This document shows, in pieces, positions 1-8,354 of a stretch of DNA of 8,354 nt. Position 1 is the first letter of the stretch. Each line of letters opens with the position of its first letter. The stretch is from a virus. Lineage: Duplodnaviria; Heunggongvirae; Uroviricota; Caudoviricetes. The stretch covers positions 1-8,354 of IMG/VR virus record IMGVR_UViG_2671180574_000007. One strand, 5' to 3'. The notes beneath the pieces were generated by a model. The model was given only the letters and a program-made list of their open reading frames with translations, was not told where the DNA came from and searched no databases. Made by a program: the position numbers and the translations under genes.

Positions 1-122
1 GAAGCATGGGCTGAGCGGCAGTTAAAAAAGGTAACTAGGTAACAAGGTTGATTTTTCCGGAATCTGTGGTAAATTCGTCATAACGATGGGCGTTTTATGC
101 CTGACGTTAGAAGAGTTTCTAC

Positions 123-146
123 AACCCGCCGCCGAGCGGGTTTTTT
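123..146 (+). terminator. Rho-independent terminator (stem cccgc/gcggg, 6-nt loop, T6 tail)
   Basis: Hairpin 125-129/136-140 with flanking A-T pairs, followed by TTTTTT at 141-146; sits downstream of a frame-1 stop at 40-42. Confidence 0.6.
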
Positions 147-266
147 ATGACTGAAATCGCGTCAGTACAGTAAACGCGCTGGTGGCGGTGAATACCTGTC
201 TTTCAGCTTGCTGGCTTTTTCGACAAGAGTTATTGGTGTGTCACGTTAACCGGAAAAGGAAAAGAC

Positions 267-464
267 ATGCTAAAACAGCAGGATATGACAGAAACCGCCA
301 GAGTGGTGTTTAATGAATTAAGCGTTACCGAACCGGCGACAGTCGGGGAGATAGCGCAGAATACTTACCTTTCACGCGAACGCTGCCAGTTAATACTGAC
401 CCAGCTGGTTATGGCGGGTCTGGCAGACTATCAGTTCGGTTGTTACAGACGCCTTCCGCAGTGA
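267..464 (+). CDS. Small winged-helix DNA-binding protein, FaeA/PapI-like (hypothetical regulator, 65 aa)
   Basis: ATG with AGGA-type Shine-Dalgarno about 8 nt upstream; pattern VVFNEL...TVGEIAQNTYLSRERCQLILTQLVMAGL resembles PapI/FaeA-type small winged-helix regulators; intrinsic terminator overlaps the stop codon. Confidence 0.5.
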   Translation: MLKQQDMTETARVVFNELSVTEPATVGEIAQNTYLSRERCQLILTQLVMAGLADYQFGCYRRLPQ

Positions 465-476
465 AGGCTTTTTTAT
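450..476 (+). terminator. Rho-independent terminator overlapping the stop of the 65-aa ORF
   Basis: Perfect 6-bp stem gccttc(451-456)/gaaggc(463-468), 6-nt loop, then TTTTTT(469-474)ATTTG. Confidence 0.65.
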
Positions 477-493
477 TTGTGGTAAATGGGCGG

Positions 494-582
494 CTGGTGG
501 GTGTTAGGGGCACCCACCAGCCATCTGCTCATGCGTTGGGTTCACAAGCAAACCTCAGGCCCACTGCTTTGCGCAAAAGCAG
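494..582 (+). promoter_or_regulatory. Structured leader upstream of the methyltransferase gene (two stable hairpins, neither terminator-like)
   Basis: Perfect 10-bp inverted repeat ctggtgggtg/cacccaccag (494-503/511-520, 7-nt loop) and 7-bp stem ctgcttt/aaagcag (564-570/576-582); no T-run after either. Confidence 0.4.
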
Positions 583-614
583 AATGAGCCTATCAGAGAC
601 AGGCTTAATGATCC

Positions 615-1673
615 ATGCTTAATACTGTAAAAATATCCAGTTGTGAGTTAATCAACGCCGACTGCCTGGAATTTATCCGGTCGTTACCCGAAAATTCTGT
701 TGACCTGATAGTCACGGACCCGCCGTACTTTAAAGTGAAGCCTGAGGGCTGGGATAACCAGTGGAAGGGCGACGATGATTACCTGAAGTGGCTGGACCAG
801 TGTCTGGCGCAGTTCTGGCGGGTGCTGAAACCTGCCGGAAGTCTTTACCTGTTCTGTGGTCATCGCCTGGCATCTGATATCGAAATCATGATGCGTGAAC
901 GCTTCAGTGTGCTGAACCATATTATCTGGGCGAAGCCGTCCGGACGCTGGAACGGATGCAACAAGGAAAGCCTGCGGGCGTATTTCCCCGCCACAGAGCG
1001 CATTCTGTTCGCGGAACATTATCAGGGGCCGTATCGTCCGAAAGATGCCGGGTATGCGGCGAAGGGCAGTGCACTGAAACAGCATGTGATGGCCCCGCTG
1101 ATTTCTTACTTTCGTGATGCGCGAGCTGCCCTGGGGATAACGGCAAAACAGATTGCAGATGCCACAGGAAAGAAAAACATGGTGTCGCACTGGTTCAGTG
1201 CCGGTCAGTGGCAGTTGCCGAATGAAAGCGATTATCTGAAATTACAGGCGCTGTTTGCCCGGGTGGCAGAAGAGAAGCATCGGCGTGGTGAACTGGAAAA
1301 GCTCCACCACCAGCTGGTGGATACGTATACCTCACTGAACCGGCAGTATGCGGAGCTGCTGAGTGAATATAAACATCTGCGGCGGTATTTTGGCGTGACG
1401 GTGCAGGTGCCGTATACCGATGTGTGGACGCATAAACCGGTGCAGTTCTATCCCGGGAAACATCCGTGCGAAAAACCGGCAGAAATGCTGCAGCAGATAA
1501 TCAGCGCTAGCAGTCGTCCGGGTGACCTGATTGCAGATTTTTTCATGGGGTTGGGTTCGACAGTGAAAGCGGCACTGGCGCTCGGGCGTCGTGCAATTGG
1601 CGTTGAGCTGGAGACTGAACGTTTTGAGCAGACGGTTCGGGAAGTACAGGATTTAGTCAGCCAGAACGGATGA
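615..1673 (+). CDS. DNA methyltransferase, beta-class (motif IV before motif I), probable N6-adenine specificity; orphan (no adjacent restriction enzyme)
   Basis: 352-aa ORF; N-terminal LIVTDPPYF (motif IV, DPPY) and C-terminal DFFMGLGST (motif I, FxGxG AdoMet site); central insert with HTH-like/coiled-coil segment typical of a target-recognition region. Weak Shine-Dalgarno. Confidence 0.88.
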   Translation: MLNTVKISSCELINADCLEFIRSLPENSVDLIVTDPPYFKVKPEGWDNQWKGDDDYLKWLDQCLAQFWRVLKPAGSLYLFCGHRLASDIEIMMRERFSVLNHIIWAKPSGRWNGCNKESLRAYFPATERILFAEHYQGPYRPKDAGYAAKGSALKQHVMAPLISYFRDARAALGITAKQIADATGKKNMVSHWFSAGQWQLPNESDYLKLQALFARVAEEKHRRGELEKLHHQLVDTYTSLNRQYAELLSEYKHLRRYFGVTVQVPYTDVWTHKPVQFYPGKHPCEKPAEMLQQIISASSRPGDLIADFFMGLGSTVKAALALGRRAIGVELETERFEQTVREVQDLVSQNG

Positions 1674-1713
1674 TATTGAAGAATTAATTACGCGTCGTTA
1701 TTATGCGGCTCCC

Positions 1714-1789
1714 GGCCCTTTAGCTCAGTGGTGAGAGCGAGCGACTCATAATCGCTTGGTCGTTGGTTCAAACCCAACAGGGGCCACCA
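1714..1789 (+). tRNA. tRNA with anticodon CAU, tRNA-Ile2-like (lysidine-dependent AUA decoder); elongator tRNA-Met not excluded
   Basis: Hand-folded cloverleaf: acceptor 1714-1720/1779-1785 (one G-U), D-stem gctc/gagc, anticodon stem agcga/tcgct with loop cTCATAa (anticodon 1747-1749), T-arm gttgg-ttcaaac-ccaac, discriminator A, encoded CCA. Acceptor and anticodon stems resemble E. coli ileX-type tRNA from memory. Confidence 0.85.
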
Positions 1790-1797
1790 TATCTATC

Positions 1798-1836
1798 AAG
1801 GGGTTACGTTAACAGCGTGACCCCTTCGTTTTTTCT
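1798..1836 (+). terminator. Rho-independent terminator downstream of the tRNA
   Basis: 7-bp stem aaggggt(1798-1804)/acccctt(1820-1826) with structured loop, followed by cgTTTTTT (1829-1834). Confidence 0.65.
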
Positions 1837-2115
1837 AGGATACCTATAGGATACCGTGACAGAGTATAAGCAGGTATAAAAACAACAAGTTACGCAACAT
1901 CATACCTGTCATGAAACTTTAACTATCCGACATGATAGCTGGTCGATGATCACGGATAATCCGTTATGTGGATCCCCATATCGGCATCAGGCCCACCAGC
2001 GTGAAGCGTTTTTCATTTTTCGCGGGTATAAAAAATCGATGGGGCTGGCAGTCCGGAAGACGTCAGGGTACAGAGATTTGACCCGCCCCTCCCTGTGCAT
2101 GGGCACAATAAGTAA

Positions 2116-2139
2116 CCGAAGGCGGAATTCCGCCCTCGG
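2116..2139. repeat. 24-bp near-perfect palindrome (11 of 12 pairs) centred on GAATTC
   Basis: ccgaaggcggaattccgccctcgg; T-rich flank on the minus-strand side, so it could act as a weak terminator for the convergent minus-strand cluster. Confidence 0.55.
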
Positions 2140-2172
2140 TACTCACATATGAGAAACGATATTTCTTCCTCT

Positions 2173-2253
2173 GATACCCAAAATATGGGTATCACAAGTA
2201 ACCCCCAAAATCTGGGTGTTGCTCTTACTACCCAAACTACGGGTAGTTTCCGT
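2173..2253. repeat. Three tandem 27-bp units, each containing a dyad-symmetric core ACCCAAA-N4-GGGT
   Basis: Units 2173-2199, 2200-2226, 2227-2253; cores gatacccaaaatatgggtatc (perfect 8-bp arms), aacccccaaaatctgggtgtt, actacccaaactacgggtagt; centre-to-centre spacing 27 bp. Confidence 0.7.
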
Positions 2254-2265
2254 AATTTCATGGTC

Positions 2266-2285
2266 GAGTTGCAGATCTGCAACTC
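2266..2285. repeat. Perfect 20-bp palindrome centred on AGATCT
   Basis: gagttgcagatctgcaactc, 10 of 10 pairs; no U-run on either side. Confidence 0.7.
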
Positions 2286-2330
2286 ACCCACCAGCCAACG
2301 CAATTTTGCGTTATCGGGAATATCAGCAAG

Positions 2331-2618
2331 TTACCGCCGCAGCCGTTCCGGCTTCTTCCACTGGTAAGTATTTTTCGCGCTCTCCCTCCGTTGTTGAGAA
2401 CGGCGACGGTATGCCAGCAACTCAAGGACTCTTGTTCGTATGTTGCGCATATCCACGCCGTTAAGCTCAATACCGTCACGGAGCATCACCTCAGCCACCA
2501 CACGCGCGTAATTTTCAGCGGTGACTGTATCCGGCTGCGCGGCCTGTTCGTCAGCCAACTGGCTGATTCCACCAGCACAGCGGATTAATCGCAGTATTTC
2601 AGATTCGGTCATTATCAT
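2331..2618 (-). CDS. Hypothetical 95-aa protein translationally coupled to the small terminase gene; possibly a truncated remnant
   Basis: ATG at 2616-2618 overlaps the TGA of the upstream gene (ATGA coupling); Arg-rich C-terminal tail (RRRSQQRRESAKNTYQWKKPERLRR) runs into non-coding palindromic DNA; no recognisable motif. Confidence 0.45.
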   Translation of the reverse strand: MIMTESEILRLIRCAGGISQLADEQAAQPDTVTAENYARVVAEVMLRDGIELNGVDMRNIRTRVLELLAYRRRSQQRRESAKNTYQWKKPERLRR

Positions 2619-3100
2619 GCCTGTTTTGCGACCTCATTCACTACGTCATTTTTTACCATCCGGCTGATAATCTGATTACGCAAATCGTCAATAATTGACT
2701 GCACTCTGTTTACTGCCATCGGTTTAAGCCCGGCATCACGTGCCAGAATATTGGGGAGTTTTGCCAGTTCCTCGCTTACGATTTCCCCCCATATAGCCAT
2801 CTCTTTTCGCACATCATCGGCGGGTATGAGTTGCGCCGTTTCCTGTTCGAACTTGAGGCGCTCACGTTCGGACTGATACCAGGCCTTACGGTCATGTGGC
2901 TCCATTTCTTCCAGTGATGCCGGAACGGGAAGATCAAGAAAACAGGTCAGAATGTCAGTCACCCGATAGAGTTTCAGCTTGTCATGCCCTCCGGCTGGCT
3001 GGATGTTTTTCAGCCTTGCCGCCGCAGTCTGACGACATATTCCCGCTATCGCCGCCAGTTGATTAATGTTCAGCATCAGATTTTTCAGTTCTCGATCCAT
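2615..3100 (-). CDS. Terminase small subunit, lambda Nu1-like (DNA packaging protein), about 161 aa
   Basis: Start placed at the internal ATG (3098-3100) preceded by GGAG 5 nt upstream; the six-frame ORF extends to 3187 without a Shine-Dalgarno. N-terminal HTH pattern LNINQLAAIAGICRQTAAARLKN...GG..KL.LY and downstream helical region align by eye with lambda Nu1. Confidence 0.65.
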   Translation of the reverse strand: MDRELKNLMLNINQLAAIAGICRQTAAARLKNIQPAGGHDKLKLYRVTDILTCFLDLPVPASLEEMEPHDRKAWYQSERERLKFEQETAQLIPADDVRKEMAIWGEIVSEELAKLPNILARDAGLKPMAVNRVQSIIDDLRNQIISRMVKNDVVNEVAKQA

Positions 3101-3371
3101 ACCCGCTCCAGAATGTTTTAAACATGCATCTTGCGAACAACTTTCAGAAGAGTTCAAAAAATGCGCTATATGTTGAGCATAAAACAAGCAAAACTAACAT
3201 ACCAAAAATAAAAATACTTAAAATTCAATATCATATGAAGATGATGATGACGAATGAAAATGCAAAAACTAGCCTTTTTCCGCGCCGCTCCCGCCCCGCG
3301 GCAGGCCACCTCACCGGGAGGACCCACCCAAAAAAGGCGACTGTCACTATTGTTTATGCTCCATGAGCGAC

Positions 3372-3393
3372 AAAACCGCCCGCAGGCGGTTTT
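3372..3393. terminator. Bidirectional intrinsic terminator hairpin
   Basis: aaaaccgcc-cgca-ggcggtttt: 9-bp stem including A/T arms, 4-nt loop; T-run on both strands; lies about 18 nt downstream of the gpI-like stop on the minus strand. Confidence 0.65.
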
Positions 3394-3410
3394 ACATAAA
3401 ACGTTTTGTA

Positions 3411-4052
3411 TCAGCGACCAATCACCACAATCTGGCCGCCATCCCCTTCATCTGCCGTGCTGATCTCTTGCGAAATCACCCGCGACCCGACGCGCATTTC
3501 ACCGTACAGAACAGGCACAACATTGCCCTGGGCAACCATGTTATCCAGAGAGGAGAAATAGGTGTTCTGCTTACCGTTATCCGTGGTGCTGGCTGTTGCT
3601 GTGCTGGCTTTCGGTGCCAGCATCTGTGCAACACCACCAAGTGTCATCGCCGCCCCCATTGAAAAGAGAATGTCACTGAAAGCGATACTGATTCCTGGCA
3701 TCCAGATTGCCGTAGCAATCAGCGCCGCACCAAGCACCGCCTGAAACACGCCGCCACTTTTGGCACCAGCCAGACGCGGTACGATGTGGATCACGGCACC
3801 ATTTTCCAGCGGTTCATTAAGACGGGCTGATAATTCGTTTTCGCCTGTATCACGCCCGGCAATACGCACCTGATACCAACCATCGCTCAGTTTCTGACGA
3901 AACGCTGGGATCTGCATGGCCAGCGCCCGGATGGCTTCGGCCCCCGTTTTCACATGAAGATCGATGCGGCGGCCAAATCGTTGTAAATCCCCGTAAAGGC
4001 AGATGCGTGCCATGCCCGGTGACGCCAGAGGGAGTGTGTGCGTCGCTGCCAT
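3411..4052 (-). CDS. Phage lambda gpI-like tail (tip) assembly protein
   Basis: 213-aa ORF with N-terminal ubiquitin-like region, central hydrophobic Gly/Ala-rich segment and C-terminal block TTDNGKQNTYFSSLDNMVAQGNV.PVLYGEMRVGSRV.SQEISTADEG that matches lambda tail assembly protein I as recalled from memory; GAGAGG Shine-Dalgarno about 10 nt upstream. Confidence 0.6.
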   Translation of the reverse strand: MAATHTLPLASPGMARICLYGDLQRFGRRIDLHVKTGAEAIRALAMQIPAFRQKLSDGWYQVRIAGRDTGENELSARLNEPLENGAVIHIVPRLAGAKSGGVFQAVLGAALIATAIWMPGISIAFSDILFSMGAAMTLGGVAQMLAPKASTATASTTDNGKQNTYFSSLDNMVAQGNVVPVLYGEMRVGSRVISQEISTADEGDGGQIVVIGR

Positions 4053-4141
4053 TTGTCGGTATACCTCTCTCGTTTGCTCAGTTGTTCAGGAATATGGTGC
4101 GGCAGCTCGCCGCCCCACGTGTTCAAAGTACCGCCTTGTTG

Positions 4142-6055
4142 TCATGCTCCATTCGATTTCAGCAATCCACGATAATCGAGGGCCGCGACACCTGCATCTA
4201 TGCGCACCTTCCAGGCGACACCATCAACAGTAAAGCCCACCTGCTCCTCAAGATATGGCGTATCCATACCATCAAGATAAGCGACTTCTATTGTGTCCAT
4301 CCCCTTAGCTGCGGCTACATACCATTCCTTGCTATTGGCCTTATCAAGACGTGGCTCAACAATTACTTCTGCCATATCTTTCACAACGTTAATGATGCCG
4401 GGGTTCTGATTGATAGTGCCCTCATCACCAACCGGAAAGACTGATGACGATGACAGAATGGCGCGACGCGCGGCAGATTCCAGCGCGGCAGGGACCAGAA
4501 CAAAAGCAGGGGTAATATTCAGTGAGTCGCCGTTAGCATCCTCCTGGAGGCGCATCAGCTTACGGGCTTCATCAAGCCCCACCATGTCCATATCCTTCGC
4601 AATAAGATTTTTATGATCGGCATGGAATAACGCTTTACCATCCGTAAACTTGCCGTTGCTGGTTAACAGGAGATAAACCAGATTGCCAACTGTTCTGGCG
4701 GCTGCGCGTCCCATCGCCATGGGGATTGTAGTTAACTGGGTCAGGTCATCGTTGATAATGGCCTGACGGGTAACGGAAAAAATATTCCCGTACGTGGCCA
4801 GCGCAATAGGTACACCTTTATCGCTGGTGGTGATGTATTTATATTCCGCACCTTCCGGTACTTTATCCAGCTTTGAAAAACCATTCAGACCAACGCGCTT
4901 TGCTTCATGAAAGTTTGAAAGCGAACCGGTACGCGTCCATTTCTGGAACGTTTCGCCGCTGTCCTGCCAGCCTTTCAGTACAGATTTTTCAGCCCCACCA
5001 GCCAGAATATGAGAAAAATCACTGCTGCTGTGTGTAAAAGCCGCATTAACAACCTGCGAGCGATTAATAAAACCACTCACAGTGATACCACGATCAACCA
5101 GTGATGCCTGGGCCATTTCAAAAAGGCTCATCATCGCGTAAGGGTTGCCTCGTTCAGGGCGTTCATACCCAAGACGGGAATAAAGCCCCTGACGAATTGC
5201 ATCACCTGTTATGTTTCCGTTTCCGGCATAGATATGAGGCGGGGTATTTTTATTGGATGGCGTGGACTCGCGCCCCAGCTCGTTCAACAGCTTTTCACGG
5301 GCCATTTCCGGTGTACATGATGCATCTTCCAGACACGCCATTTTGATCCCGTCGTAACGACTGCCGAACAGGCTAAACACTTCACTTATTCCATTGATGC
5401 GTTTCTGTTCATTACCAGCAATATTTGCCGCTCCCTGTGGCGGTGTAATCATTCCTTTAATGGTTTCCGGCATATGTAAAAAATCTCCTGTGCGCTTCGA
5501 TTCAATTCGCGCCATTGCTCTGACGGATGGCAACAATTCATCAGCAAAACCGTGCTTAAGGCATTCTTTCCCGTCCATCCAGGTTTCATCTTCCAGCATG
5601 GCGGTAATTTCCTGTGCTGATTTGCCCGTTTTTCTGGCATAAGCAGGGACTAACACGGTTTCCACCTTATCCAGCAAATCAGCATAATCACGCATATCAC
5701 CAGCATTTCCGCCAGAGATACCCCACGGCTTATGTATCATCATCATGGCGTTTTCCGGCATCACAACACGATCGCCAGCCATTGCGACCACCGAAGCCAT
5801 TGAAGCCGCAACACCATCGATATAAACCGTAATGTCTGCCGGATGATTCCGTAGCAGGTTATAGATGGCGATGCCTTCAAACACATCACCACCTGGTGAA
5901 TGGATCCTCAGATTGATATGTGAAACATCGCCAAGGGCTTTCAGGTCTTCCGCGAACTGCTTTGCAGTAACACCGAAGCCGCCAATCTCCTCATAGATAG
6001 ATATATCCGCCGCTCCGCGAACATCCGCCGCCTTAATGGTGTACCAGCGATTCAT
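4142..6055 (-). CDS. Fusion protein: ClpP-like (S14) prohead protease N-terminal domain plus HK97-fold major capsid protein C-terminal domain
   Basis: 637 aa; N-terminal ...LRIHSPGGDVFEGIAIYN...GVAASMASVV...MMIHKPWG... carries ClpP catalytic Ser/His context; C-terminal roughly 330 aa has capsid-like architecture (motif-level assignment, weaker); ATGA overlap with upstream small ORF. Confidence 0.75.
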   Translation of the reverse strand: MNRWYTIKAADVRGAADISIYEEIGGFGVTAKQFAEDLKALGDVSHINLRIHSPGGDVFEGIAIYNLLRNHPADITVYIDGVAASMASVVAMAGDRVVMPENAMMMIHKPWGISGGNAGDMRDYADLLDKVETVLVPAYARKTGKSAQEITAMLEDETWMDGKECLKHGFADELLPSVRAMARIESKRTGDFLHMPETIKGMITPPQGAANIAGNEQKRINGISEVFSLFGSRYDGIKMACLEDASCTPEMAREKLLNELGRESTPSNKNTPPHIYAGNGNITGDAIRQGLYSRLGYERPERGNPYAMMSLFEMAQASLVDRGITVSGFINRSQVVNAAFTHSSSDFSHILAGGAEKSVLKGWQDSGETFQKWTRTGSLSNFHEAKRVGLNGFSKLDKVPEGAEYKYITTSDKGVPIALATYGNIFSVTRQAIINDDLTQLTTIPMAMGRAAARTVGNLVYLLLTSNGKFTDGKALFHADHKNLIAKDMDMVGLDEARKLMRLQEDANGDSLNITPAFVLVPAALESAARRAILSSSSVFPVGDEGTINQNPGIINVVKDMAEVIVEPRLDKANSKEWYVAAAKGMDTIEVAYLDGMDTPYLEEQVGFTVDGVAWKVRIDAGVAALDYRGLLKSNGA

Positions 6056-6261
6056 TGTTCCCCCACCGATGCAAAACCATTCTGATTAAGCCAGGTGTTT
6101 ACGGCATGTCTGACAATCTGCGCCACACCTGGTAATGGTTGGTCAGGATGATGATTTATATGGTCGATCCTGTACTGCTTAAGGCGCATAACGGTCTGCG
6201 CATCCAGATGAACGGAACCACCTCTGGTATCACCTGTGTTCAGGTCATTAATACAACTCAC
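6052..6261 (-). CDS. Hypothetical 69-aa protein, first gene of the capsid operon
   Basis: GTG start with strong GAGGAAG Shine-Dalgarno 5 nt upstream; stop overlaps the fusion-gene ATG; AT-rich putative promoter region upstream (6262-6360). Confidence 0.55.
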   Translation of the reverse strand: MSCINDLNTGDTRGGSVHLDAQTVMRLKQYRIDHINHHPDQPLPGVAQIVRHAVNTWLNQNGFASVGEQ

Positions 6262-6361
6262 AGCAACTTCCTCTGACTGACTAAACTATGCACATTATTG
6301 ATCTATAAAAGTGGTAAATAAACATATTTCTATCATAAAAACAGATTAATTAGATTCAGAC

Positions 6362-6387
6362 ACAAAAAAGCCGGATTTCTCCGGCTT
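6362..6387 (-). terminator. Rho-independent terminator on the minus strand between the origin and the capsid operon
   Basis: 8-bp stem aagccgga/tccggctt (6368-6375/6380-6387), 4-nt loop; on the minus strand followed by TTTTTTGTG. Confidence 0.7.
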
Positions 6388-6514
6388 CTGTCACTCGTTG
6401 CTTAAAACGGTATGTTATCCCCGTACGGATCATCATTCCCCGCCTGTTGTTTTGGTGTGCTTCGCTGTCATAGGCTTTATCTCACAGCAGTAAATTAAAA
6501 TTTTTGCGTTTTAA

Positions 6515-6745
6515 CCCTTCACCTGTTCACCTTTTGATATTTTCTCTATTAATTCATAATGTTAAGGGGTGAACAGTTTCAAAAAAACTATTCACCAACT
6601 GTTCACCACTGTTCACCCTTGAAGCTCAATAAACAATCAAAAAGGTGAACAGTGAATAGTTTGGTGAACAGTTCATAAATAACTGCTCACCCTATAATAT
6701 ACTGATATAAAAGATATTTATGACAGGGTGAACAGTGGTGAACAG
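6515..6745. repeat. Iteron cluster: putative P4-type replication origin (octamer TGTTCACC / GGTGAACA)
   Basis: Perfect octamers at 6524-6531(+), 6568-6575(-), 6600-6607(+), 6610-6617(+), 6644-6651(-), 6663-6670(-), 6727-6734(-), 6737-6744(-), plus degenerate copies (6517-6523, 6590-6596, 6652-6659, 6684-6691); AT-rich flanks; directly downstream of the primase stop. Confidence 0.8.
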
Positions 6746-6758
6746 TTATTCCATAAGT

Positions 6759-8354
6759 TTAATTTTTGCTATCGTCATTAGTGACCGATACACATGATGG
6801 CATCCAGTCTTCTGATTCCTCCGTCAGTGTCACGTTTGAACGCAAACCGTGCTTCGTTTTCCGTTTCATATACTCCCTGCCATATTCCGCCATTGCCCCC
6901 GGCATATCTTTACCGAAGCGCGTCAGTGTTACAGGTTTACCAAACCCATGTGCCCTCATATAAGCCAGATAGGCATGATAGAGATACCTGCGTGGGCTGA
7001 ATGGCACAATTTCAGCATTACCCACTAACAGGCCATCACACATTACCGACGCCATGAGATAGCCGCAGAAGTCCACCAGCGAATCCCCCTCTCGCTTTAT
7101 CGCCAGTGCTTCTTCAGATTTCTGCTGCTCATATAACAGGCGTCTGGCTTCGTCCTGGTCAGCAAACCGTGTAAGCAGATGGCGAATCACTACCGCCAGC
7201 TCACCTTCTATTTTTTCCGCCAGCATTGGATCACGTTCGTTCTCCGGTACAACTTCCGAAAAATTGAATATCACCCGACGACGTGAGATCCCCCCACTGC
7301 GGTCACTGAATGACATGGCGTTATTGTTAACCGCCAGCACTACTGCCGGAATACGCGTTGAGTAGGGGGCTTTGTGTTTCGGGTCAATTGCCACCTTGTC
7401 ACCGCCTGTAATAGCCTTAATCCCTGCCCCATCACCAGCGTAGCGGGTCATATCCGGCATGATAATCAGCGAAAAGCCAACCACTAACGCGCGTTCCCTT
7501 GCATCTTCCAGCGCCTTCATGCTTGCCGATACTGTGTTGGCCTTACCCGCCAGCATGGTGCAAATCTCCGCCATCACGCTTTTACCACTTCCCCCTGGAC
7601 CTGTTACCTCAATGAATAACTGCCAGTCGTACCGGTTCGCCAGCACCATGAATAATGCAGCCAGTACGCGATCCGCCTTGCGGTCATTCTCAGCCACCGA
7701 ACGGCGTAACCACTTCCAGAAATTCGGCGCATGTGTTGCCAGCGTTTCCCCCTCTGCTGGTGGGCTGAAAGGTAATTCACTGGCAATTAACAACCAGTCG
7801 TTTTTGTTATGCTCCCGAAAATTACCTGTTCTGGTATCAAATACCCCGTTACTGAATCCAATCAGGTTACGGGCTGTATTCCCCATAACAGGCAAACTTA
7901 ACTTCATGGTATCGACCGCCGATTTAATGGCGTTCTGCGAATAGCTGATCTCCGCATCAATGAAAATCTGCGCCATAGCTCGCTGTAATTCTTTATCCTG
8001 TACTGGCTCCCATACAACGCCGTTGTAATGGTGAACAGTGTCAGAGTCAGCATGAATCGCCAGTTCACCGCCATAATGTGCCAGGAGAACTTCGCCGCGT
8101 TGACTTGCTCCCATCTGGTTAAGCGCCAGTGATGAAGCGTTATCGTCTTTTACCCGCTCTTTTTTCTTTACAGGCAGTTCAACTACCTTTTTCTTTTCCG
8201 CCAGCTCTGCCCGTTCACGTTCCAGATATTCACGCCAGTTCTCCCGTTTCTGGCTGTGCATTCCTTCAGGGTAATAATCAGCATCCCTGACACCTGCCTC
8301 TGCCAGTTTCTGCCCGATGGTATTAACAAGCCCCGGACGCAATAACCCCGCCTG
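6759..8354 (-). CDS. Primase/helicase of the phage-plasmid P4 alpha family (C-terminal part; N-terminus beyond the window end)
   Basis: Reading frame stays open to the window edge (the 8342 start in the ORF track is a TTG, not the true start); Walker A GPGGSGKS; stop TAA at 6759-6761; followed by matching iterons. Confidence 0.85.
   Translation of the reverse strand, partial: QAGLLRPGLVNTIGQKLAEAGVRDADYYPEGMHSQKRENWREYLERERAELAEKKKVVELPVKKKERVKDDNASSLALNQMGASQRGEVLLAHYGGELAIHADSDTVHHYNGVVWEPVQDKELQRAMAQIFIDAEISYSQNAIKSAVDTMKLSLPVMGNTARNLIGFSNGVFDTRTGNFREHNKNDWLLIASELPFSPPAEGETLATHAPNFWKWLRRSVAENDRKADRVLAALFMVLANRYDWQLFIEVTGPGGSGKSVMAEICTMLAGKANTVSASMKALEDARERALVVGFSLIIMPDMTRYAGDGAGIKAITGGDKVAIDPKHKAPYSTRIPAVVLAVNNNAMSFSDRSGGISRRRVIFNFSEVVPENERDPMLAEKIEGELAVVIRHLLTRFADQDEARRLLYEQQKSEEALAIKREGDSLVDFCGYLMASVMCDGLLVGNAEIVPFSPRRYLYHAYLAYMRAHGFGKPVTLTRFGKDMPGAMAEYGREYMKRKTKHGLRSNVTLTEESEDWMPSCVSVTNDDSKN

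Follow-up and report, generated by a model that had tools for sequence, protein, structure and literature searches.

SatelliteFinder recognises phage-inducible chromosomal islands (PICIs) by a core of integrase, regulator, primase-replicase, capsid morphogenesis gene, and small terminase subunit (TerS), with other structural genes typically lacking (PMC10085698). They are laid out in four zones—Integration, Bro, Replication, and Late—the last of which holds late genes captured from helpers (Tommasini et al. 2023, PMC10111431), and those that integrate at tRNA-Ile2 are set apart by the type of their integrase, the lack of alpA, and the possession of a CLP_protease gene (PMC10111431). EcCICFT073 carries homologs of capsid and head-decoration genes (PMC6092414), and in EcCI PICIs the cosQ and cosN sites are near-identical to those of the helper, with an unrelated cosB (Feiss and colleagues, PMC9026076). 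Here, we analyse a stretch of 8,354 nucleotides (the window, positions 1 to 8,354 of the Caudoviricetes record IMGVR_UViG_2671180574_000007), and find that its positions 1744-8354 are the right-hand ~6.6 kb, or two-thirds, of a Gram-negative PICI of SatelliteFinder Type A and of the tRNA-Ile2-integrating subtype. The island is neither a new architecture nor a decayed prophage but one of a catalogued enterobacterial kind; less ordinary are a tail cassette consisting of a remnant of gene K and an intact gpI gene (K′-gpI) and the insertion target, a prophage-borne ileZ. A first-pass annotation, made from the letters of the window, had held that no known satellite family combines such a replicon with a capsid gene and a TerS, a statement that PMC10085698, PMC6092414, and PMC10111431 contradict.

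An island of a described type

Across 5,426 complete Escherichia coli genomes searched with megablast, window positions 1714-8354 were recovered at 99% identity within a discrete island. In strain Z0117EC0133, this island lies between the chromosomal tRNA-Ile2 adjoining mug and nfeF; its left part encodes an integrase (475 aa), a hypothetical protein, a helix-turn-helix (HTH) protein, YlcI/YnfO (on the opposite strand), an Icd-like protein, a second hypothetical protein, and a DUF4222 protein, and its right part consists of Pri, the origin, the capsid fusion gene, K′, gpI, TerS, and orf95. Complete islands measure ~10.4-11 kb and have attachment (att) repeats at both ends, such that in one related locus (L001) a direct repeat of the 3′ part of the tRNA, at least 46 bp long, encloses 11,016 bp. 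The integrase and att repeats for which the first-pass annotation proposed a search are thus both present in the complete copies of related genomes. Homology to islands with other integrases begins only at about 1923-2120. An HTH_17 protein occupies the alpA position in islands with the tRNA-Ile2 integrase, and Pfam Phage_AlpA proteins occur in islands with the same late module and other integrases.

No portal, TerL, connector, tail-shaft, tail tube, tape-measure, J, or lysis genes were found in the complete copies, nor any HNH gene or repressor/early genes. The earlier statement that the late genes of a lambdoid phage are missing therefore holds for TerL, portal, tail tube, tape measure, and J even in complete copies, and fails for K, of which 53 codons remain. 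What the islands do have are bounding att sites, a primase-replicase with a downstream origin, a capsid-morphogenesis gene, and TerS with a cos-like site, as PICIs do. PICIs are also defined by being without other phage structural, tail, or lysis genes, from which the presence of gpI and the K′ fragment departs; this departure is confined to a 23-genome subset bearing gpI, and most islands of this type conform. The first-pass annotation had counted an orphan tail-tip assembly gene in the combination that it found in no known family, and gpI alone is indeed atypical of PICIs.

With Type A PICIs of the EcCI family such as EcCICFT073 (Fillol-Salom 2018/2019), the island shares a size of ~10-11 kb, the series of int, a gene in the regulator position, Icd-like gene, Pri, iteron origin, and late zone, a capsid-morphogenesis gene, and a packaging-specificity gene by a cos site (putative in the island) whose cosQ/cosN copies that of the helper. 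It differs in encoding a fusion of ClpP protease, scaffold, and HK97-type capsid protein instead of homologs of lambda E and D, a DUF1441 TerS homolog instead of Rpp as specificity factor, and a subtype regulator of HTH_17 instead of Pfam Phage_AlpA type, as well as in its predicted helpers (mEp460/Gifsy-type rather than lambda/phi80) and in the presence of a tail gene. The target, the 475-aa integrase, the lack of alpA, the CLP_protease late gene, and the four zones are all shared with the tRNA-Ile2 PICIs of PMC10111431; these were treated there as chromosomal, whereas the target here and in a second locus (L028, below) is a prophage ileZ just downstream of Q. Published helper-embedded PICIs (HE-PICIs) are co-oriented and lie inside protein-coding late genes, whereas the window island is anti-oriented in a tRNA gene and has the attP arm of the tRNA-Ile2 integrase type; the window copy accordingly falls outside the HE-PICI definition, and sister copies with the same late module fall within it. 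Capsid-forming PICIs (cf-PICIs; EcCIEDL933, Alqurainy et al.) also have their own protease, a capsid protein far from phage homologs, and their own TerS, but the type of island in the window is without portal, head-tail connectors, TerL, and HNH, and thus depends on head proteins of the helper for making or filling a capsid. Finally, SaPIbov5 Ccm and PmCI172 offer a satellite HK97-fold capsid homolog that was proposed or shown to give satellite-sized capsids, whereas the protein predicted here is a full protease-scaffold-capsid fusion.

The late genes recur across genomes and with different integrases. A module of the capsid fusion gene and the small open reading frame (ORF) orf69 (at least 80% of the query) was found in 184 of the 5,426 genomes, as was a module of cos, TerS, and orf95 at the same threshold, and the exact 637-aa capsid protein occurs in 947 blocks of the collection. 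Identical capsid proteins were found in five contexts—ileX, an ileY-like site adjoining csiD, a prophage TerL gene, cspD/clpS, and rcnR/thiM—with integrases of 475, 399/412, 412, and 406 aa and a regulator of either HTH_17 or Phage_AlpA type. At least five integrase/att modules have the identical late module behind them. Where it interrupts the TerL gene of a lambdoid prophage, it comes with a different integrase and forms a typical HE-PICI, and it is also found on a circular record of 10,790 bp that was deposited as a plasmid, although chromosomal places for copies far outnumber plasmid ones (26,734 versus 74). Purifying selection acts on the late genes, all of them intact: the ratio of nonsynonymous to synonymous substitution rates (dN/dS, calculated here and below from satellite to satellite) is low. 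No satellite protein matched the PADLOC defence models. In one E. coli genome (CP032523.1; L017 and L018), two island copies with identical capsid proteins coexist, at the mug-proximal tRNA-Ile2 site and next to csiD.

A satellite clade of protease-capsid fusions

In profile searches, the capsid fusion matched CLP_protease (2e-35) and Phage_capsid_4 (3e-54), and it scored 901 bits against NCBIfam NF045540, 'ClpP-like prohead protease/major capsid protein fusion'. The best identity to any of 50,697 phage records was 57% (tblastn), the matching phages being Stx/1720a-02 and mEp460/mEp043/mEp213-type lambdoids. Among 5.8 billion proteins searched, relatives of 612-646 aa were recovered at 70-99% identity from Escherichia, Shigella (97-99%), Klebsiella, Pectobacterium, Dickeya, Serratia, Yersinia, and other genera. 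All contexts examined for these relatives were int-AlpA-replicase islands, located at fis in Serratia and Yersinia and inside the helper's own ClpP-capsid gene in Pectobacterium. Phage versions are 652-675 aa long; the satellite clade is without a 29-residue Pro/Ala-rich linker after the protease, has an insertion of 8-11 residues late in the capsid domain, and keeps the ClpP-type AASMAS and MIHKP motifs (S85, H108) invariant. The dN/dS of the fusion was 0.10, 0.076, and 0.061 at 125, 57, and 509 differences, respectively. From these comparisons, we regard the fusion as belonging to a short-form clade of the satellite lineage, and not as a recent capture; the clade appears confined to satellites across the Enterobacterales. 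Its product may build or co-build a shell, possibly a smaller one, or may act purely as an interference factor.

The fusion gene can itself be a site of insertion. In a metagenomic locus (L005, 1-12485), a further island interrupts it near codon 98 and brings a second, 74%-identical capsid fusion; gpI is absent there, and the composite fits the case of an 'HE-PICI inside a tRNA-Ile2 PICI at CLP_protease:110' (PMC10111431). Similarly, in Pectobacterium brasiliense (L031, 1168-13973), an island with its own short-form fusion, together with AbiC-like and GmrSD genes and an AAA_25 replicase, splits the ClpP-capsid gene of a helper prophage.

Directly 5′ of the fusion gene there is always a small ORF (59-69 aa, motif VH(I/L)DA...P..P.P...Q..R..V..W), represented in the window by orf69 and kept alongside the fusion in islands of Escherichia, Serratia, Yersinia, and Pectobacterium, with a dN/dS of 0.04-0.23. 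For both orf69 and orf95, the sole profile matches were to PHROG families without an assigned function. Its single-sequence AlphaFold model (pLDDT, the model's own confidence measure, 65) consists of an extended segment and two helices, and possibly represents a ribbon-helix-helix DNA binder. A derivation from the C-terminal end of a portal protein was ruled out, as no alignment was obtained, and Foldseek searches of the low-confidence models of orf69 and orf95 against the PDB gave no match at E < 1.

Packaging genes and the cos-like region

The alignment of the satellite TerS with phage TerS begins at the ATG at position 3100, and not at the TTG at 3187 initially proposed as its start; the protein is a small terminase, as first annotated, but its family is DUF1441 rather than Pfam Phage_Nu1. 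It is 66-71% identical to the TerS of mEp460-type phages, with substitutions throughout the N-terminal region, an identical centre, and a different C-terminal tail, and its dN/dS is about 0.1 on few changes. The satellite protein ends (2615-2660) in ...ISRMVKNDVVNEVAKQA, and the acidic tail of the mEp460-type TerS in ...AGADDEEELQQEE. Neither TerS nor an Rpp-position protein had matches in the PDB. After the capsid fusion in some islands lies a 74-aa protein whose match to DUF1441 is confined to the N-terminal part of the family, and which could be a TerS relative reduced to the DNA-binding domain.

We aligned the 230 bp upstream of TerS with the same region in mEp460, Ayreon, and a prophage (L003). 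Identity is about 90% over a GC-rich, cosQ/cosN-like block (3246-3330), 53% over a cosB-like stretch (3150-3245), and 94% over the TerS 5′ untranslated region (3101-3149); the region, at first described as AT-rich, thus also contains a GC-rich, cos-like segment. The lambda cosN consensus was not above chance in the window. The pattern of identities is that described for the EcCI PICIs (PMC9026076). In our inference, satellite TerS recognises the cosB of its own DNA and offers a common cosN to the TerL of the helper. In two related loci (L001, 13662-13932; L002, about 5938-6210), 270 bp are inserted past the origin and ahead of the late operon, at the equivalent of window ~6361-6375. Within them the GC-rich cos-like block (3254-3326) appears a second time, over ~73 bp and at 93% identity. 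The window is without this insertion, and the second cos-like copy recalls the two cosN copies reported for EcCICFT073.

In phages, TerS is followed by the TerL gene, a place taken in the satellite by orf95, a small protein that is specific to satellites and whose translation is coupled to that of TerS. The late genes of an EcCICFT073-like PICI end with a homolog of orf95, and dN/dS is 0.1-0.3. We ruled out that it is an N-terminal remnant of TerL, to which it has no similarity, or a phage gene, given a lone weak match among the 50,697 phage records. Against the PDB, its sequence gave just a weak ankyrin/DARPin-like match (per-repeat E about 100), and its single-sequence AlphaFold model has a pLDDT of 60.

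An optional tail cassette

The gpI of the window is 88% identical to a prophage gpI, the differences lying mainly in the hydrophobic helices and plug region. The surrounding K′-I cassette (~0.8 kb, about 3409-4118 in the window) is 86-87% identical in DNA to prophage K-I regions; comparison with islands that lack gpI places it within the hairpin terminator found there after the capsid gene, and it includes a terminator of its own. With the last 53 codons of K left between the capsid gene and gpI, the cluster bears one capture scar. The junction of capsid, K′, gpI, and cos was found in only 23 of the complete E. coli genomes, and gpI is present in about 12% of islands and intact in 10/10 loci. 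By sequence, we read the cassette as an optional gene for a virion protein, acquired recently from the tail module of a lambdoid. In lambda, three copies of gpI in the tail tip plug the tube beneath the tape measure, and it has been proposed that their hydrophobic helices insert into the outer membrane during ejection (PMC11101478).

In a TerL-embedded island with the identical capsid protein (L023, 12103-12675), gpI is a 223-aa lambda-like allele at 77% nucleotide identity, which suggests ongoing exchange with phage I genes. Since Tai tail-assembly-inhibition systems occur in PICIs downstream of pri, they were considered as counterparts and set aside; Tai is linked to the central tail fibre J, where escape mutations map, and the paper never mentions gpI (PMC11364771).

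Insertion into a prophage-borne tRNA gene

Window positions 1-1793 correspond to the lambdoid prophage stretch of Q, a hypothetical gene, the methylase, and ileZ, and include no E. coli core chromosome. This flank is 96-97% identical to such regions in E. coli prophages and 93-95% identical to those of Stx phages, in which the stretch normally leads into argN, argO, nanS-p, and lysis genes. We compared the tRNA-Ile2 gene base by base with phage ileZ, chromosomal ileX attL/attR, and metagenome loci, and found it to be a hybrid—phage ileZ is matched without a difference by its 5′ half and by the flank upstream, and the 3′ half, just past ACTCATAATCGC, is the version present in the attL of chromosomal ileX islands, which originates from the satellite attP. 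In the hybrid acceptor stem, phage GGCCCTT pairs with satellite AGGGGCC, giving one G-U pair. A second example, in E. coli O111:H8 strain 7-58 72A (L028), has the ileZ hybrid (15002-15077), a related island of 10,387 bp, an attR with the phage-type 3′ half (25419-25470), and argN-argO beyond; this arrangement of attL and attR proves reciprocal site-specific integration into the prophage tRNA.

The orientation of the island opposes that of the prophage late operon. The exact junction of methylase, tRNA, and island was found in 0 of the 5,426 complete E. coli genomes, and had no match in GTDB representative genomes. The best PADLOC match of the methylase was Type II MTase. An identical methylase protein is present in thousands of assemblies, including prophage remnants next to ompW (Shigella sonnei 53G), which carry no satellite. 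Given also the 97-99% identity of the Shigella capsid fusions, the window may come from a Shigella/E. coli lineage.

Replication module and layout of the window

Pri contains the domains D5_N, DUF5906, and Pox_D5 by profile search and matches PHROG 864, 'DNA primase', at 7e-179. It has P4-family similarity in the primase C-terminus, and its score against TIGR01613 (95.6 bits) is under the cutoff of 108.7. The reading frame is open through the last base, 8354, and the full protein in related loci has 605 aa. At the origin, within 6523-6745, the iteron CTGTTCACC is present 10 times, with copies in each orientation; the whole-window count is 15 against 1.7 expected, and 0/200 shuffles reach 15. 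Its position directly 3′ of pri is that of characterised PICIs (PMC6092414).

The remaining features are collected in Table 1. Much of the first-pass annotation of this strand stood up: every element of its minus-strand gene order lies at or near where it had been placed, the late genes are intact with the overlaps of orf69 with the fusion gene and of TerS with orf95 that it had read as translational coupling, the protease, capsid, and gpI domains it had predicted were matched by profile, the iteron origin is far above expectation, and the hairpins at 6389-6366 and 3389-3372 (the latter of bidirectional type) fold well.

Table 1. Features of the 8,354-nt window, in order of position
Feature	Position	Strand	Basis or remark
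Lambdoid prophage flank, outside the satellite	1-1713	+	prophage homology
Q antiterminator, 3′ end	1-42	+	lambdoid prophage flank
65-aa ORF	267-464	+	prophage flank; weak TrmB-like HTH match
N6/N4 DNA methyltransferase	615-1673	+	Pfam N6_N4_Mtase; prophage gene
Hybrid tRNA-Ile2 = attL, anticodon CAT	1714-1789	+	ARAGORN, Rfam tRNA (sole match in the window in the Rfam scan)
Crossover core ACTCATAATCGC	1744-1755		within hybrid tRNA-Ile2
attP arm, non-coding, tRNA-Ile2 integrase type only	1756-2092	.	island comparison
Terminator closing the late zone	2115-2140	-	11-pair stem in scan; fold of 46-nt stretch at 2140-2115, -26.8 kcal/mol, z = -6.8
orf95	2331-2618	-	PHROG 1561; overlaps TerS stop
TerS, DUF1441 family, 161 aa	2615-3100	-	PF07278 3e-36; PHROG 141 'terminase small subunit'
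Putative cos	3150-3330	-	segment identities versus mEp460-type phages
Hairpin terminator after gpI, A and T runs on each side (bidirectional type)	3372-3389	-	-15.7 kcal/mol, z = -2.9 (3389-3372)
gpI, 213 aa	3411-4052	-	Lambda_tail_I PF06805 4e-23
K′ remnant, last 53 codons of tail gene K	3950-4111	-	92% identity to prophage gpK 195-247
ClpP-like prohead protease/scaffold/HK97-fold major capsid fusion, 637 aa	4142-6055	-	
orf69	6052-6261	-	PHROG 4934; overlaps fusion-gene start
Terminator between origin and late operon	6366-6389	-	-18 kcal/mol, z = -4.0
Replication origin, iterons	6523-6745	.	36-37% GC
Pri replicase (primase-helicase), C-terminal 531 codons, N-terminus beyond window end	6759-8354	-	

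Proposed life cycle and alternative explanations

Site-specific recombination brought the island into ileZ, a tRNA gene carried by a lambdoid prophage, and its features suggest the following cycle. A helper lambdoid of mEp460/1720a-02/Gifsy-like type—one with a DUF1441 TerS and a ClpP-capsid fusion besides its portal and gpA-type TerL—would trigger the regulator of the island, upon which Int would excise the island and Pri would replicate it from the iterons. The satellite TerS would bind its own diverged cosB and bring helper TerL to the helper-like cosN/cosQ, with the outcome that satellite DNA would be cut and packaged in preference to that of the helper. The satellite fusion might then assemble on the portal of the helper, either by itself or together with the helper's capsid protein, giving satellite-sized heads or otherwise biasing head assembly, with portal, connectors, TerL, and tails supplied by the helper; gpI, if expressed, would enter the helper tail tip as plug protein. 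One unit of ~10.4-11 kb could fit a head of roughly T=3 size, or else a head built for the 44.5-kb genome of mEp460 could be filled by four units, which at 10.8-11.0 kb each amount to 97-99% of that genome. A bolder joint proposal is that the element is a 'half capsid-forming' satellite, which builds its own satellite-sized shell from its protease-scaffold-capsid fusion on a stolen helper portal and fills it by means of its own TerS and helper TerL, that the gpI subset also swaps the tail plug protein of the helper, and that insertion at ileZ, between Q and the lysis/structural genes, gates helper late transcription until excision; taken together, we put these forward as a minority possibility.

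In its general form, that the locus is a described Type A/tRNA-Ile2 PICI that depends on a helper and uses its own TerS and cosB with helper TerL, we hold our interpretation to be highly probable, and several observations weigh against it or parts of it. The integrase and regulator fall outside the window, the identity of the helper is argued from homology only, and the putative cosN was assigned from conservation rather than from mapped ends. The C-terminal tail of the satellite TerS is unlike the acidic tail of the helper protein, the ileZ island of strain 7-58 72A (L028, 15619-16158) keeps orf95 and the capsid fusion with no TerS gene between them, and the fis-site PICIs of Serratia and Yersinia (L029, 11059-11283; L032, 11076-11300) carry only a 74-aa DUF1441 protein. 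Prophages with the identical methylase in Shigella sonnei-type genomes are remnants ridden with insertion sequences, and the prophage that hosts the window island may therefore not be a working helper. Lastly, deletion of the capsid or decoration homologs of EcCICFT073 left lambda plaquing unrestored, so these homologs do not explain interference (PMC6092414) and a PICI capsid gene need not be an interference factor.

An alternative we consider unlikely is a PICI whose capsid fusion and gpI are poison subunits that spoil the heads and tails of the helper as a population-level defence. PICIs commonly hinder their helpers, some PICIs harbour elements documented to interfere with tail assembly (PMC11364771), the satellite capsid protein has diverged from helper versions, and gpI departs from prophage gpI mainly in its hydrophobic helices and plug region; however, the ClpP-type motifs and full capsid domain, conserved under strong purifying selection, fit an assembling protein at least as well, PADLOC found no matches, and gpI is present in just about 12% of islands. 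The first-pass annotation had left the choice between a helper-dependent satellite, which is supported here, and a deletion-scarred cryptic lambdoid prophage, in which capsid, gpI, and TerS would be leftovers without current function. A K′ pseudogene fragment adjoining gpI, three genes in the circular order of a lambdoid genome, and late genes with DNA-level homology to prophage genes speak for such a relic. Yet the unit is bounded by precise att repeats and has int, regulator, and pri of PICI type, repressor/early, lysis, and tail-shaft genes are not part of it, and a capsid at most 57% identical to any phage gene is no recent remnant; given the att repeats, the recurrence of the module in 184 genomes behind at least five integrase/att modules, and purifying selection at a dN/dS of about 0.1, we reject this explanation as very improbable. 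Hardly any credence can be given to a cf-PICI that makes complete capsids and steals tails only: protease, capsid protein, and TerS are encoded and the capsid is distant from phage homologs, but the defining portal, head-tail adaptor/connector, TerL, and HNH genes are absent from complete islands. The same near-dismissal applies to a P4-like satellite or small plasmid, for which the P4-family similarity of the Pri C-terminus and the one copy deposited as a 10.8-kb circular 'plasmid' might speak—psu, sid, delta, and epsilon were not found in complete islands, the TIGR01613 score is under its cutoff, and nearly all copies are chromosomal, with integrase and att sites.

Conclusions

The immediate value of this analysis is a correct filing of the locus, as a PICI and neither a new satellite class nor prophage debris. 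PICIs that target tRNA genes can enter prophage-borne tRNA genes, and so come to lie inside the late operon of a potential helper. As tail genes are 'forbidden' under rules of the SatelliteFinder kind, gpI-bearing islands may be missed. The cos/TerS pair would represent a natural specificity switch for DUF1441-type terminases, in which the nicking site is conserved and the binding site diverged, and strong selection maintains the capsid/protease fusion clade in islands that have neither a portal nor TerL. The half capsid-forming arrangement, if true, would make these islands a functional intermediate between classical PICIs and cf-PICIs.

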